Sequence record: OR906198.1
Source of the DNA: Escherichia phage BP32
Reading direction: 5' to 3' (one strand)
Length of the DNA: 64,000 bases
Of the stretch, positions 10,502 to 58,357 are shown piece by piece. Both the position numbers and the translations under genes were made by a program. How positions within the stretch are numbered: the stretch's first letter is position 1; every line of letters begins with the position of its first letter. The notes beneath the pieces were generated by a model. It did not search any database, was not told the DNA's origin, and saw only the letters and a list, made by a program, of their open reading frames with translations.

Positions 10502-10556
10502 CCGCTTTATACCAAGGATGGTATAATGGTTCTAAGCCCTTTTAATTGAGATTATT

Positions 10557-11867: not shown

Positions 11868-12896
11868 ATGAAAACTCGTTCTCAAATTGAAGATATGGTT
11901 CGTAATGCCAGTTATACTCGTGATGTTATGACATTTTTGTGTGAAAATAATTTAGACCTTAATAAAGTTAATTGTTCCATTCACGCCTTTAAACATCTGA
12001 ATAGCAGTGAATGGGTGCGTAATTTTAGCGAAGCAGGGTATATTACACAAATGACGGCTCGTGAGCAGCTCACTGATTTCTGTAAAACTATCGATTATAA
12101 AAATCCTCTATTTGTTCAAGGCGTTGGTCAAAGTAAGGTCGATTTATCATCTGGATTTTTTAATCCAAATCATTATCGTATTGAATGGAGATTTATTGCT
12201 CTGTTCCGCAAGCAACTAAAACAAATTTTATCAACTGCGAGTCGATTAAAAGGTTCTGATATTAACTTAAAGAATCTGAAATTTGATGGTTATACTCTTC
12301 AGATGGAAGTAAGACCATTAAAAGAAAATAATAGAACTGCACGAATTAGCTTTAAACCTAATACAAAAAATTCTCTTTCAATTTGTGAATGCCTTAAATC
12401 GCAGTTGACAGAAGCATTTAAGTATATGGATGTTGTTGCTGCTGTCCAGTCTAAGATTTCACAGCGTTTCGAACTATTTAAATTAGACACAACAACATAT
12501 AAACTTGATATGATCGTTTCATTTAAATACGATTTTTTGAGAAAGGACGAAGTCACACAAGAGAAAAAGCAGGAAGTGCAAGATAACTTAAATTTAAATT
12601 TATCCAATTACTCATCAAACGATCCTAAATTTTGGATGTATAGTTCAGGTAATAAAGATGCATGGAAATTCAATAAAGTGAATTTTCTTCCTATTGAAAA
12701 TCCGAGTCTTAAACCTGTTGAAAAATGGCATGCAGATGCGATTGAAAAGTCTATCAAGGCAGTAGATGATGAACTCGTTAAAGCAACTAATGAAGTGTTA
12801 GAAGCTGAAAAGATGCTAGAAAAAGCTCAAGAAAAAGTCAAAAATCTCACGAAGCAACGTTCTAAACTGAACAATGCACTAAATGCACTGAACTAG
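11868..12896 (+). CDS. hypothetical protein, paralog family member 2
   Basis: 342 aa; AAGGA RBS; coiled-coil C-terminus. Confidence 0.6.
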   Translation: MKTRSQIEDMVRNASYTRDVMTFLCENNLDLNKVNCSIHAFKHLNSSEWVRNFSEAGYITQMTAREQLTDFCKTIDYKNPLFVQGVGQSKVDLSSGFFNPNHYRIEWRFIALFRKQLKQILSTASRLKGSDINLKNLKFDGYTLQMEVRPLKENNRTARISFKPNTKNSLSICECLKSQLTEAFKYMDVVAAVQSKISQRFELFKLDTTTYKLDMIVSFKYDFLRKDEVTQEKKQEVQDNLNLNLSNYSSNDPKFWMYSSGNKDAWKFNKVNFLPIENPSLKPVEKWHADAIEKSIKAVDDELVKATNEVLEAEKMLEKAQEKVKNLTKQRSKLNNALNALN

Positions 12897-12925
12897 TTTA
12901 CTTTACCACAGGGATGTGGTATAAT
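12896..12925 (+). promoter_or_regulatory. T4-type early promoter
   Basis: gtttactttaccacagggatgtggtataat; one mismatch from the promoter at 58099. Confidence 0.7.
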
Positions 12926-12953
12926 GTTCTTACTTTCTACTGAGGAGATTAAT

Positions 12954-13955
12954 ATGACTCGTAACGAATATATCAAATCATTCAATAGCGTTATTGATGA
13001 TAAAGCTATACCGATGTTTGGCCAAAATAGCGTTCTTTCTATTATCAATCAATGGCTCAATAGTGTTGATGCAGGTATTGTTTCTTCTACTAAATTTATT
13101 CATGAAATTCGTAAAATTTCTAGTCGTGTAGATAAAGATGTTATCAAGAAAACCTTTAAAGAGTCTCGTCTTCTTTCATATTTGGTTAATCGGGATATTC
13201 TTGGTAATTTTGGGAAAGAAATTAAACGAACCAAAGATGTAGTAGGATATAATTGGTTCGGTGATGTTAATACTTATCATCTTAATACTAAAGAAGACCC
13301 TGAGAATATTTTTACTCGTCGTTGGGTTAGTGAATTTAGGAGTTTTACGAAGCAAATTCTAAAATCAGCTTCTAAATTATGTTATGGCGATTATCGTCAA
13401 ATTCATCCCTTAGCTGATGATATGATTATAGCAGAAGAATATGAGCTTGATAAAAACAAAGTAGCTATTTTTATTAATTACAGATTTTTTACACCAGAAA
13501 CTAACCAAAGGAATATTAATAAATTTTTCTCAATTGCTAGCACTATAACTCGTCAATTAGAGACTGCACTACTTTGTATGGAAACGGTAGAAAATATTCA
13601 TACTTATCCTTTTAAGAATATGTGCGGCTGGGAAGGATATAAAATTGTAGTTAGTCTTCGTGAAGTGAAATGTGCTTATTCACCGACTGATAAAGAAATT
13701 TACCAACAAAAATGCGAAGAAATTGTGAATACTCCTAAAGAAGAAACTACCCTTGAGGAACTAATGGAATGTCTTGATGATTCGCCTGAACCGGTAGAAA
13801 TTCGTCCAGAAGTTATTGCATTAGAAAAAGCTTATAAAGAAGTTTTAGAAATTTCTAATAAAGCGCAGAAAGAATATGAGAAGGCTAAAAGGATTTGGGA
13901 AGAATCTGTTAATCGCTTGGATCGTCTTGAACAAGCTTTACAGTTAATTAAGTAA
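12954..13955 (+). CDS. hypothetical protein, paralog family member 3
   Basis: GAGGAG RBS; 333 aa; FRSFTKQILKSASKL resembles FRKQLKQILSTASRL of member 2. Confidence 0.6.
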   Translation: MTRNEYIKSFNSVIDDKAIPMFGQNSVLSIINQWLNSVDAGIVSSTKFIHEIRKISSRVDKDVIKKTFKESRLLSYLVNRDILGNFGKEIKRTKDVVGYNWFGDVNTYHLNTKEDPENIFTRRWVSEFRSFTKQILKSASKLCYGDYRQIHPLADDMIIAEEYELDKNKVAIFINYRFFTPETNQRNINKFFSIASTITRQLETALLCMETVENIHTYPFKNMCGWEGYKIVVSLREVKCAYSPTDKEIYQQKCEEIVNTPKEETTLEELMECLDDSPEPVEIRPEVIALEKAYKEVLEISNKAQKEYEKAKRIWEESVNRLDRLEQALQLIK

Positions 13956-14007
13956 TTTAAAGCCAAGGATGGCTCGGAGTATAAATCATTAACTAAGTGA
14001 GAAGAAC

Positions 14008-53816: not shown

Positions 53817-53846
53817 GTTTACAAACTCTTGGGACCAGAGTATAAT
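53817..53846 (+). promoter_or_regulatory. T4-type early promoter with inverted repeat around the -10
   Basis: gtttac...tataat; ggacc/ggtcc flank the -10. Confidence 0.65.
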
Positions 53847-53890
53847 GGTCCTGTGGAGTATAAAATCTTTTTAACAAGTGAGAGATAACT

Positions 53891-56229: not shown

Positions 56230-56281
56230 AGCTTTATGATTACTGGAGTATAATATTCCCGAAACCAAACGAGGATAAGTG

Positions 56282-58099
56282 ATGATTAAGAATGAAATTA
56301 AAATTCTGAGCGATATTGAACATATCAAAAAGCGTAGCGGCATGTACATTGGCTCTTCCGCTAATGAAATGCATGAGCGCTTTCTGTTTGGTAAATGGGA
56401 AAGTGTTCAGTATGTACCTGGTCTTGTTAAGCTTATTGATGAAATTATTGATAACTCAGTAGATGAAGGTATTCGTACTAAGTTTAAATTCGCAAATAAA
56501 ATTAATGTTACTATCAAAAACAATCAAGTAACAGTTGAAGATAACGGTCGTGGTATTCCACAAGCGATGGTTAAAACACCTACTGGTGAAGAAATTCCTG
56601 GTCCAGTTGCTGCCTGGACTATTCCAAAAGCAGGTGGTAACTTTGGTGATGATAAAGAACGCGTCACCGGTGGTATGAATGGTGTTGGTTCTAGTTTAAC
56701 TAACATTTTTTCTGTGATGTTTGTCGGTGAAACCGGCGATGGTCAAAATAATATTGTAGTTCGTTGTTCAAATGGCATGGAAAATAAATCGTGGGAAACT
56801 ATTCCTGGAAAATGGAAAGGAACTCGCGTTACTTTCATTCCCGATTTTATGTCATTTGAAACTAATGAGCTATCTCAGGTTTATCTTGACATTACACTAG
56901 ATCGTCTCCAGACACTTGCGGTAGTTTATCCTGATATTCAATTTACCTTTAACGGTAAAAAGGTTCAGGGTAATTTTAAGAAATATGCACGCCAATATGA
57001 TGAACACGCTATCGTTCAAGAACAAGAAAATTGTTCTATTGCGGTTGGTCGTTCACCTGATGGTTTTCGTCAATTAACATACGTCAATAACATTCATACT
57101 AAGAATGGTGGCCATCACATTGACTGCGTTATGGATGATATTTGTGAAGACCTTATTCCACAAATCAAACGTAAATTCAAAATTGATGTAACTAAAGCAC
57201 GTGTCAAAGAATGTTTGACTATCGTTATGTTTGTTCGTGATATGAAAAACATGCGATTTGATTCTCAAACTAAAGAGCGTCTGACTTCTCCATTTGGTGA
57301 AATCCGTAGTCATATTCAGCTTGATGCTAAAAAGATTTCACGTGCTATTTTGAATAATGAAGCAATTTTAATGCCAATCATTGAAGCTGCCTTGGCTCGT
57401 AAATTGGCGGCAGAAAAAGCAGCAGAAACTAAAGCAGCTAAAAAGGCCTCTAAAGCTAAGGTTCATAAACACATTAAAGCGAATCTTTGCGGTAAAGATG
57501 CTGACACTACTCTTTTCTTGACTGAGGGTGATTCTGCTATCGGATATCTTATTGATGTTCGTGATAAAGAACTTCATGGTGGTTATCCATTACGCGGTAA
57601 AGTTCTTAACAGCTGGGGTATGTCATATGCTGATATGCTTAAAAACAAAGAACTGTTTGATATTTGCGCAATCACTGGATTAGTTCTTGGCGAAAAAGCT
57701 GAAAACTTGAATTATCATAATATTGCTATTATGACCGATGCTGATCATGATGGTCTAGGAAGCATTTATCCTTCTCTGCTCGGATTTTTTAGTAATTGGC
57801 CAGAACTGTTTGAACAAGGAAGAATTCGCTTTGTCAAAACTCCTGTAATCATCGCTCAGGTCGGTAAAAAACAAGAATGGTTTTATACAGTCGCTGAATA
57901 TGAGAGTGCCAAAGATGCTCTACCTAAACATAGCATCCGTTATATTAAGGGGCTTGGCTCTTTGGAAAAATCTGAATATCGCGAGATGATTCAAAACCCA
58001 GTATATGATGTTGTTAAACTTCCTGAGAATTGGAAAGAGCTTTTTGAAATGCTCATGGGAGATAATGCTGACCTTCGTAAAGAATGGATGAGCCAGTAG
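56282..58099 (+). CDS. 39: DNA topoisomerase II large (GyrB-like) subunit, uninterrupted
   Basis: 605 aa; ATPase and Toprim domains (TDADHDG); C-terminal region matches what T4 encodes separately as gp60. Confidence 0.95.
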   Translation: MIKNEIKILSDIEHIKKRSGMYIGSSANEMHERFLFGKWESVQYVPGLVKLIDEIIDNSVDEGIRTKFKFANKINVTIKNNQVTVEDNGRGIPQAMVKTPTGEEIPGPVAAWTIPKAGGNFGDDKERVTGGMNGVGSSLTNIFSVMFVGETGDGQNNIVVRCSNGMENKSWETIPGKWKGTRVTFIPDFMSFETNELSQVYLDITLDRLQTLAVVYPDIQFTFNGKKVQGNFKKYARQYDEHAIVQEQENCSIAVGRSPDGFRQLTYVNNIHTKNGGHHIDCVMDDICEDLIPQIKRKFKIDVTKARVKECLTIVMFVRDMKNMRFDSQTKERLTSPFGEIRSHIQLDAKKISRAILNNEAILMPIIEAALARKLAAEKAAETKAAKKASKAKVHKHIKANLCGKDADTTLFLTEGDSAIGYLIDVRDKELHGGYPLRGKVLNSWGMSYADMLKNKELFDICAITGLVLGEKAENLNYHNIAIMTDADHDGLGSIYPSLLGFFSNWPELFEQGRIRFVKTPVIIAQVGKKQEWFYTVAEYESAKDALPKHSIRYIKGLGSLEKSEYREMIQNPVYDVVKLPENWKELFEMLMGDNADLRKEWMSQ

Positions 58100-58128
58100 T
58101 TTACTTTACCACAAGGATGTGGTATAAT
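58099..58128 (+). promoter_or_regulatory. T4-type early promoter
   Basis: gtttactttaccacaaggatgtggtataat; one mismatch from the copy at 12896. Confidence 0.7.
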
Positions 58129-58153
58129 TAATTGGGCAAATGAGGATATTGAA

Positions 58154-58357
58154 ATGAAATCATATAGAGTAAATTTAGAACTTTTTGATAAAGCAGTTCA
58201 TCGAGAATATAGAATCATTCAACGCTTTTTCGATATGGGAGAAGCCGAAGAGTTTAAAAACCGCTTTAAGGATATTAGAGATAAAATTCAATCTGACACC
58301 GCAACTAAAGATGAACTACTAGAAGTTGCTGAAGTTATTAAACGCAATATGAATTAA
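58154..58357 (+). CDS. hypothetical protein (rIIA.1 position, 67 aa)
   Basis: GAGGA RBS. Confidence 0.55.

Follow-up and report, generated by a model that had tools for sequence, protein, structure and literature searches.

Two promoter-like sequences of 30 nucleotides (nt) in the genome of Escherichia phage BP32 (sequence record OR906198.1) differ by a single base and precede unrelated genes, raising the question of what has made, or kept, them so alike. The 64,000-nt stretch analysed here, hereafter the window, is that of a Tequatrovirus (T4-like phage), and its + strand is the direction of early transcription. Both sequences lie on this strand, site A at 12896-12925 and site B at 58099-58128, and a single mismatch at position 16 of the 30-mer separates them (G at 12911, A at 58114), as the original prediction had stated; the genes directly downstream are nrdC.4 for site A and rIIA.1 for site B, confirming its claim that they are unrelated. 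As detailed below, the two 30-mers are probably old copies of one early promoter cassette, kept alike by constraint that includes an RNA hairpin encoded in the promoter spacer.

Sites A and B match beyond the early-promoter consensus

No third copy with up to three mismatches was found in the window, and none was expected from shuffled sequences. When the flanks were aligned, the match was seen to start 3 bp earlier, at TAG, and to end sharply on both sides, with the end of TATAAT as its 3' limit. Identity over this extended stretch reaches 32/33 bp because both stretches take in the TA of the TAG stop codon of the upstream gene, which at both sites shares its G with the GTTTAC motif. A reading frame across the two sites was considered and rejected: each site comes after a stop codon, and A and B do not have the same short ATG frames.

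The + strand was scanned with a GTTTAC-N18-TATAAT-like pattern, and 14 credible early-promoter-like sites were kept. The pair formed by A and B is identical at 29/30 positions, compared to a mean of 18.8/30 for all pairs and 26/30 for the next best pair, and at 12 of the 13 nt following GTTTAC (all-pair mean 4.4/13, next best 9/13). What these 14 promoters share is GTTTAC, followed by ttt or aag and then by tgtggTATAAT. The published T4 early consensus, as quoted in a depositor's note (after Miller et al. 2003), is GTTTAC-N14-gtggTAttaT, and A and B agree at 13 of the 14 positions that it leaves free. Thus, the 30-mer is not the general consensus of early promoters, and the match between A and B exceeds both chance and that consensus.

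Both sites carry the parts of an early promoter. Site A has GTTTAC with a -35 element TTTACT at 12897-12902, a 17-bp spacer, and TGg followed by TATAAT at 12920-12925, with a predicted start at about 12932; site B has GTTTAC with TTTACT at 58100-58105 and TGg followed by TATAAT at 58123-58128, with a predicted start at about 58135. The arrangement TTTACT-17-TATAAT with TG before the -10 gives 10/12 hexamer matches at both sites and is the best sigma-70 match of each neighbourhood, and site A carries a depositor annotation as a T4-type early promoter in phage SA20RB. Judged by these elements, sites A and B are strong sigma-70-type T4 early promoters. An A/T-rich UP-like stretch upstream of the -35 is not present at either (ctgaacTA at A, gccagTA at B), because the coding sequence reaches the -35 with its stop codon overlapping; most other early promoters of the window have aaaaagtt upstream of the -35.

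The cassette can be written as [TA]G-TTTAC-ttt-ACCACA-NGGA-TGTGGT-ATAAT, and host sigma-70 RNA polymerase would read it through the -35 TTTACT, the 17-bp spacer, the extended -10 TG and the perfect TATAAT. Sites A and B would stay alike because nearly every base is constrained, either by polymerase contacts or by the spacer RNA hairpin described next.

The spacer of both promoters encodes a hairpin with a conserved loop

At both sites the spacer is predicted to fold into a compact stem of 6-7 bp nested wholly within it, of the form TACCACA-NGGA-TGTGGTA. Hairpin A (12904-12921, +) reads TACCACA-GGGA-TGTGGTA, with a hexaloop A-G-G-G-A-U on a C-G pair and its GGA at 12912-12914; hairpin B (58107-58124, +) reads TACCACA-AGGA-TGTGGTA, with a hexaloop A-A-G-G-A-U and its GGA at 58115-58117. 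RNAfold assigned -9.1 kcal/mol to the 30-mer of site A and -8.2 kcal/mol to that of site B, compared to 0 to -3.5 kcal/mol for the other 12 early-promoter 30-mers, and both hairpins persisted in a context of 75-81 nt. The predicted starts lie about 10 nt downstream of the hairpin, so it would be present only on RNA reading in from nrdC.5 (site A) or gene 39 (site B).

Hairpins with the same loop and other stems were found in early promoters of other genera. Before nrdC.4 the sequences are ATCCA-AGGA-TGGAT in JS10 (Dhakavirus), ATCC-AAGGAC-GGAT in VR5 (Dhakavirus) and TTCCA-AGGA-TGGAG in ECML-359 (Gaprivervirus), and before alt.-3 they are ACACA-TGGA-TGTGT in Mosigvirus and GCAC-AAGGAA-GTGC in Gaprivervirus. 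A pattern search with the stem positions left free added about eight promoter hairpins of the form (C/G)GGCCA-TGGA-TGGCC from an uncultured phage contig (L151/L153), for which no close deposited relative was found. In this contig (IMGVR_UViG_3300016464_000352; L153 581-5820, L151 3077) the roughly eight promoters read taGTTTACttt(C/G)GGCCA-TGGA-TGGCC-TATAAT, each stands before a small open reading frame (ORF), and they adjoin variants with stem-loops that flank the -10.

Covariation was assessed in a hand-assembled set of 13 loop-anchored sequences, representing about 5-6 independent lineages or loci. In this set 92.3% of the cells pair, compared to 64% in shuffles (0/500 reached 92.3%) and 26-44% with slid partners. 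Both sides changed in four of the six stem pairs, the invariant letters are C-A-n-G-G-A-n-G, and the A.N position immediately within the closing C-G pair is the only one with unpaired cells. The motif C[A-N-G-G-A-N]G is kept in all 13 aligned variants, including VR5 with GGAC and Gaprivervirus with GGAA. That the loop keeps its sequence while the stem covaries would imply a reader acting in trans.

Five hairpins of the stem-C[ANGGAN]G-stem type lie on the window's + strand and the - strand has none, with about 0.5 expected and 0/300 shuffles reaching five. Four of the five are at gene junctions beside -10-like elements; the fifth (31884) lies in coding sequence and may be due to chance. In addition to sites A and B, these are, both within the nrdC array, a hairpin at 10507-10526 (+; TTATACC-AAGGAT-GGTATAA), which has TATAAT (10522-10527) in its 3' arm and is without a good -35, and one at 13961-13974 (+; AGCC-AAGGAT-GGCT) at the nrdC.4/nrdC.3 junction, followed by cggag-TATAAA (13980-13985), which looks like a cassette of ancestral type with a decayed -35 (TTTAAA). 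The core of the former, CCAAGGATGGTATAA, was detected in 13/13 Tequatrovirus records, that of T4 among them, and Dhakavirus and Gaprivervirus have it at the orthologous junction; the core of the latter is that of the Dhakavirus/Gaprivervirus nrdC.4 promoter and is likewise kept across the Tequatrovirus panel. Four copies of the CCAAGGATGG-(a/t)TGGAG-TATAA type occur in Mosigvirus. A further hairpin, ACCACA-CGGA-TGTGGT, was observed in JS10 (64048-64072, - strand) between a TAA stop and an AGGAGG Shine-Dalgarno sequence with no promoter nearby, and in two IMG/VR relatives the variable loop base is A or T.

Among these cassettes the distance from the hairpin core to the -10 is 0, 5 or 6-7 nt, and only the sense strand tolerates G.U wobbles. 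The sense-strand wobbles, the strand bias and the variable spacing together point to an RNA element acting on sense read-through transcripts, rather than to a polymerase contact or a DNA operator.

A scan of IMG/VR for the hairpin alone yielded 119 matches, dominated by chance, with about 20 in a promoter or intergenic context, and when the stem was fixed and the loop left free, NGGA loops made up 9/102 matches compared to about three expected, a modest enrichment. The spacer arms TACCACA...TGTGGTA were also seen in promoter-like sites of four unrelated viral contigs, with loops AAAC, GATA, ATTG and GCTG. No Rfam family was detected at the elements of sites A and B.

A different kind of spacer folding prevails among the early promoters of the window. 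In 10 of the 14 the spacer pairs with sequence 3' of the -10, usually covering the Shine-Dalgarno sequence (-13 to -24 kcal/mol); on folding, these are the + strand promoters at 714, 5722, 40688, 41186, 43307, 45649, 47751, 52712, 53817 and 63098. In those ten only read-through RNA would hide the ribosome site. The promoter at 53817-53860 (+), GTTTACaaactcttgggaccagagTATAATggtcctgtggag, has a -10-flanking stem that is kept in Gaprivervirus ECML-359 by compensatory changes (gggacc/ggtcc to ggggtc/gacccc).

Both copies predate the radiation of Tequatrovirus

To date the two copies, they were compared across a panel of 18 other Tequatrovirus genomes (T4, five IMG/VR contigs and twelve deposited genomes picked to span the range of identity) of about 500 deposited. 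Genome-wide copy counts, taken from T4 and relatives, gave exactly two copies per genome in the panel (18/18, including T4, T2 and KNP5), one before nrdC.4 and one before rIIA.1. As two copies are present in every Tequatrovirus examined, the copying would predate the radiation of the genus; on this distribution, the common ancestor of Tequatrovirus already had both, and the copying is old.

Site B was invariant in the 18 other genomes, that of T4 being identical to the window's. Site A was found in four states: tttGcc in most genomes, identity to site B in SholemSchwarzbard, an A-to-G change in the loop in the window and in Pu-Krd-SF3, and ttCGcc in DalCa. Site A of T4 (tttGccacaAgga) differs from site B at another base than the window's site A does. 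All site A changes are confined to A10G (which gives a G.U wobble), the loop A16G and T9C (in the outermost pair), and the stem is unbroken in all of them.

The alternative that the one-base difference marks a young duplicate, produced by recent copying or gene conversion in this genome, seems quite improbable. Some features would fit it: the window and its closest relative, Pu-Krd-SF3, have A at position 10 of site A as in site B, where most relatives have G; sites A and B are identical in SholemSchwarzbard; a query with site B found a second megablast place in about 69/498 phage records; and recombination over short homologies is frequent in T4 (PMC9391042; PMC2839356), so that a short B-to-A conversion patch is possible in some lineages. 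However, both copies occupy the same two loci in every Tequatrovirus examined, the window's loop G16 is a private change of site A and no remnant of copying, and a single A/G transition at position 10 requires no conversion. The A at position 10 in the window's lineage could thus be at most a short conversion patch from site B, or a simple transition.

The promoter cassette has been exchanged between loci

The two sites appear to differ in age as positions. In Dhakavirus and Gaprivervirus the nrdC.4 promoter is found at the orthologous junction, with the same leader ctactgaggag (orthology being based on JS10_0084, which matches nrdC.5, and on JS10 nrdC.4, which matches nrdC.4), and its spacer is (a/t)tCCAAGGATGGatggag. 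The position of the nrdC.4 promoter, that is, site A, is by this comparison older than the split of the genera. A spacer of this ancestral type persists in the window before the paralogue nrdC.3, as AGCCAAGGATGGCTcggagTATAAA at 13961-13985, where the -35 has decayed. At the position of site B, by contrast, there is no promoter in Gaprivervirus, Kanagawavirus, Gelderlandvirus, Karamvirus and Dhakavirus, where a pair of small ORFs, the downstream one overlapping rIIA.1, comes between gene 39 and that gene; Mosigvirus has another ORF and an unrelated stem-loop element. Site B is therefore, in the genera compared, a novelty specific to Tequatrovirus.

Dhakavirus provides the closest match to the ACCACA-type spacer shared by sites A and B, in its alt.-3 promoter TAGTTTACaacACCACAAGGATGTGGTACTAT, which is identical to site B at 27/32 positions, the overlapping TAG included. 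The alt.-3 promoter of T4 retains TAGTTTAC but its spacer is unrelated. At this junction in T4 (122745-123160, - strand) atgTAGTTTAC is retained, and the spacer is unrelated to the GGA-hairpin spacers of the Dhakavirus, Mosigvirus and Gaprivervirus counterparts. As the spacer of site A is nearest to the alt.-3 cassette of other genera while that of T4 alt.-3 is unrelated, cassettes would have been exchanged between loci, in the way described for the promoter-early stem-loop (PeSL) cassettes of T4-type phages (PMC2839356, PMC4122927). This provides a concrete case of promoter-cassette exchange, with one cassette before different genes in different genera.

Common descent is the best reading of the likeness between sites A and B. 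The original prediction had favoured recent copying over convergence, and of this the copying stands, the two sites being mutual closest relatives and identical over 32/32 positions in SholemSchwarzbard, while the recency is contradicted by the presence of two copies in all Tequatrovirus examined. Its argument that identity beyond the hexamers implies recent copying does not hold, as the spacer itself appears to be under selection, encoding a hairpin that compensatory changes preserve between genera with a protein identity of only 44-58%.

Possible readers of the hairpin

Among candidate readers of the hairpin, the host protein CsrA is the best fit to its sequence. The consensus of CsrA ligands obtained by SELEX is RUACARGGAUGU, in which ACA and GGA are invariant and the GGA lies in a hexaloop closed by AC/GU pairs, and the related RsmE recognises an ANGGAN loop (PMC7652899). 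As RNA, sites A and B read CCACARGGAUGU and match 10/12 of these positions, with ACA, GGA and UGU exact and only the first two positions differing; site A of Dhakavirus and the L153 variants have CCA in place of the ACA of the consensus. In the glgC leader a hairpin site tethers CsrA, and the dimer bridges to a site at the Shine-Dalgarno sequence over 10-63 nt (PMC7652899). The hairpin GGA and the GGA of the Shine-Dalgarno sequence downstream are 29 nt apart at site A and 26 nt apart at site B, inside this range. A role as a Shine-Dalgarno mimic pairing with 16S RNA was rejected, since any of A, G, U or C can occupy the second loop position, a freedom that fits A-N-GGA but not AGGA complementarity.

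A GGA-reading factor, most likely CsrA of the host, would dock on the hairpin and could bridge from it to the Shine-Dalgarno GGA 26-29 nt downstream, so that read-through and promoter-initiated RNA of nrdC.4 and rIIA.1 would be handled differently. Put more fully, the spacer may serve as a promoter in its DNA form and as a near-consensus CsrA hairpin in read-through RNA, with CsrA repressing or re-routing the read-through copies of nrdC.4 and rIIA.1 (and of alt.-3 in other genera) and sparing those initiated at the promoter; we put this forward only tentatively, as a possibility still short of probable. Literature searches revealed no paper linking CsrA to T4 gene expression. The related reports found were limited to the stabilisation of CsrB during T4 infection (PMC9697503) and to a broad, probably pleiotropic, phage resistance conferred by csrA knock-down (PMC7553319).

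Several observations weigh against these proposals. When the stem was fixed and the loop left free, non-GGA loops were found in 4 of the 10 promoter-context sites of unrelated contigs; the spacer hairpin can therefore recur without a CsrA-type loop, which lowers confidence in CsrA. The Shine-Dalgarno sequence downstream of the hairpins at 10507 and 13961 is GAGA and has no GGA, which limits the bridging geometry to sites A and B. The stems, with 5-6 bp beyond the hexaloop, are longer than those of most SELEX ligands (4 bp or fewer). The covariation, for its part, comes from the few independent lineages of a set assembled by hand, and the sequences compared are compatible with more than one order of copying among site A, site B and alt.-3.

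Other roles for the hairpin have to be weighed against a CsrA site. The early phage endoribonuclease RegB cuts GGAG/U in early-gene intergenic regions, independently of S1 if the GGA is unpaired (PMC3014915), and on read-through RNA it might cut the loop at GG/AU, so that the downstream cistron is detached and inactivated. GGAU is present in 11/13 aligned hairpins, with its GGA unpaired at sites A and B, but VR5 reads GGAC and the alt.-3 hairpin of Gaprivervirus GGAA, the strong-site consensus GGAGRAYARAA is unmatched downstream, secondary structure is said to protect against cleavage, and no role in RegB cleavage is stated for the invariant A that opens the loop or for the C-G closing pair. 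RegB is a real rival to CsrA, if of low probability. The same low likelihood is given to a plain PeSL stem-loop with no specific protein partner, acting as an attenuator or terminator of upstream transcription or as a 3' stabiliser of the upstream mRNA. PeSL stem-loops do terminate in RB49 (PMC2839356), the same stem occurs with other loops in promoters of unrelated phages, and the hairpin of site A passes a loose terminator filter, if marginally. Site B, however, has no T-run and fails this filter, and with three G-C pairs of seven the stem is not the G+C-rich one, followed by a U-run, of an intrinsic terminator. The stems are also weak (-3.7 to -10 kcal/mol), and neither termination nor stabilisation explains the invariant A-N-GGA-N loop across covarying stems.

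Least likely of these roles is a DNA operator, in which the inverted repeat overlapping the promoter would be bound by a dimeric protein. A near-perfect palindrome of 7+7 bp does extend over the spacer and the -10, and the same stem could form in minus-strand RNA or in DNA. Against this, the G.U variants (site A of T4 and others) break the symmetry of the DNA and keep the pairing of the sense-strand RNA, the conserved centre NGGA is not palindromic, all five instances in the window are on one strand, and the distance to the -10 varies (0, 5 or 6-7 nt), with one instance beside a Shine-Dalgarno sequence without a promoter.

If the hairpin is a site for CsrA or another GGA reader, T4 early expression would be coupled to a global regulator of the host, and the coupling would depend on where the transcript starts. 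GGA hairpins and anti-Shine-Dalgarno spacers would then be two interchangeable gates on translation by transcript origin, one of them working through a host protein.

Genes flanking the two sites

Upstream of site A lies an ORF at 11868-12896 (+), annotated as nrdC.5 in relatives, whose TAG stop (12894-12896) overlaps the first base of GTTTAC. In T4, nrdC.5 is an anti-Dsr1 counter-defence gene; in experiments it defeated the Dsr1 defence of E. coli ECOR17 (PMC9391042). As nrdC.5 counters Dsr1, the element of site A sits in a counter-defence region. Downstream, the nrdC.4 leader and coding sequence (CDS) occupy 12942-13955 (+), with a Shine-Dalgarno sequence GAGGAG at 12942-12947 (GGA at 12944-12946) and the CDS at 12954-13955. 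Some depositors begin nrdC.4 at the ATG of TATAATG inside the -10 (12924 in the window), which adds ten codons (MFLLSTEEIN); this ATG would be absent from transcripts initiated at site A, and the annotation of T4 takes the downstream ATG. The products of nrdC.3 and nrdC.4 are distant paralogues (26% identity), and BLASTP of nrdC.5 and nrdC.6 against nrdC.3/nrdC.4 gave no match.

Upstream of site B lies gene 39, encoding the large subunit of topoisomerase II (56279-58099, +; 606 aa), whose TAG stop (58097-58099) overlaps GTTTAC. In the window this gene is one uninterrupted frame, compared to the split 39 / mobA / 60.1 / 60 arrangement of T4 with translational bypass. The rIIA.1 leader and coding sequence follow at 58142-58357 (+), with a Shine-Dalgarno sequence GAGGA at 58142-58146 (GGA at 58144-58146) and the CDS at 58154-58357.

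Comparison with known systems

Much of what surrounds the two sites is known. The promoters are T4's own, ahead of nrdC.4 and rIIA.1, and the literature already describes promoter-stem-loop cassettes that are repeated and take part in gene shuffling. T4 early promoters (Pe) are described as 'uber' sigma-70 promoters with UP, -35, TGn and -10 elements (Hinton 2010, PMC2988021). Sites A and B resemble them in GTTTAC with its -35, in the 17-bp spacer, in TG plus TATAAT, in orientation and in their place before early genes, and both are present in T4 itself; they differ in being without an UP-like stretch and in that the 14 'free' spacer positions encode a hairpin. The spacer match thus suggests a second message, itself under selection, in the 'free' spacer of some early promoters.

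The closest published counterpart is the PeSL cassette of T4-type phages (Arbiol et al. 2010, PMC2839356; Comeau et al. 2014, PMC4122927), instances of which were reported at about 50-51 kb of PST, in the nrdC region (PMC4122927). [quoted passage not shown] The published stem-loops, however, are promoter-adjacent, G/C-rich terminators, whereas that of sites A and B lies inside the spacer, off the Shine-Dalgarno sequence, and has a conserved loop; most stem-loops of the window, too, differ from it in flanking the -10 and pairing with the Shine-Dalgarno region. No paper describing a spacer-nested hairpin with an A-N-GGA-N loop was found in the literature search, and a search for the sequence of sites A and B itself found nothing relevant.

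With the known CsrA/RsmE hairpins, that is, the SELEX ligands RUACARGGAUGU, the ANGGAN hexaloops, the glgC leader and the CsrB repeats CAGGA(U/A/C)G (PMC7652899), the candidates share ACA-RGGA-UGU exactly, a GGA in a C-G-closed hexaloop and a second GGA at the Shine-Dalgarno sequence. Unlike them, they are in a phage promoter spacer, would be present only on read-through RNA and have a stem longer than typical SELEX ligands. The hairpins that gate T4 genes e, soc, 49 and I-TevI, as well as the anti-Shine-Dalgarno spacers of the window, are similar in that their 5' part lies upstream of an internal promoter, so that only read-through RNA carries the element, but those sequester the Shine-Dalgarno sequence, whereas at sites A and B it stays accessible and the hairpin would need a factor acting in trans. 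What is new here, as read from these sequences, is therefore a structural variant of the PeSL-type promoter-stem-loop, together with a hypothesis for the host factor that may read it.

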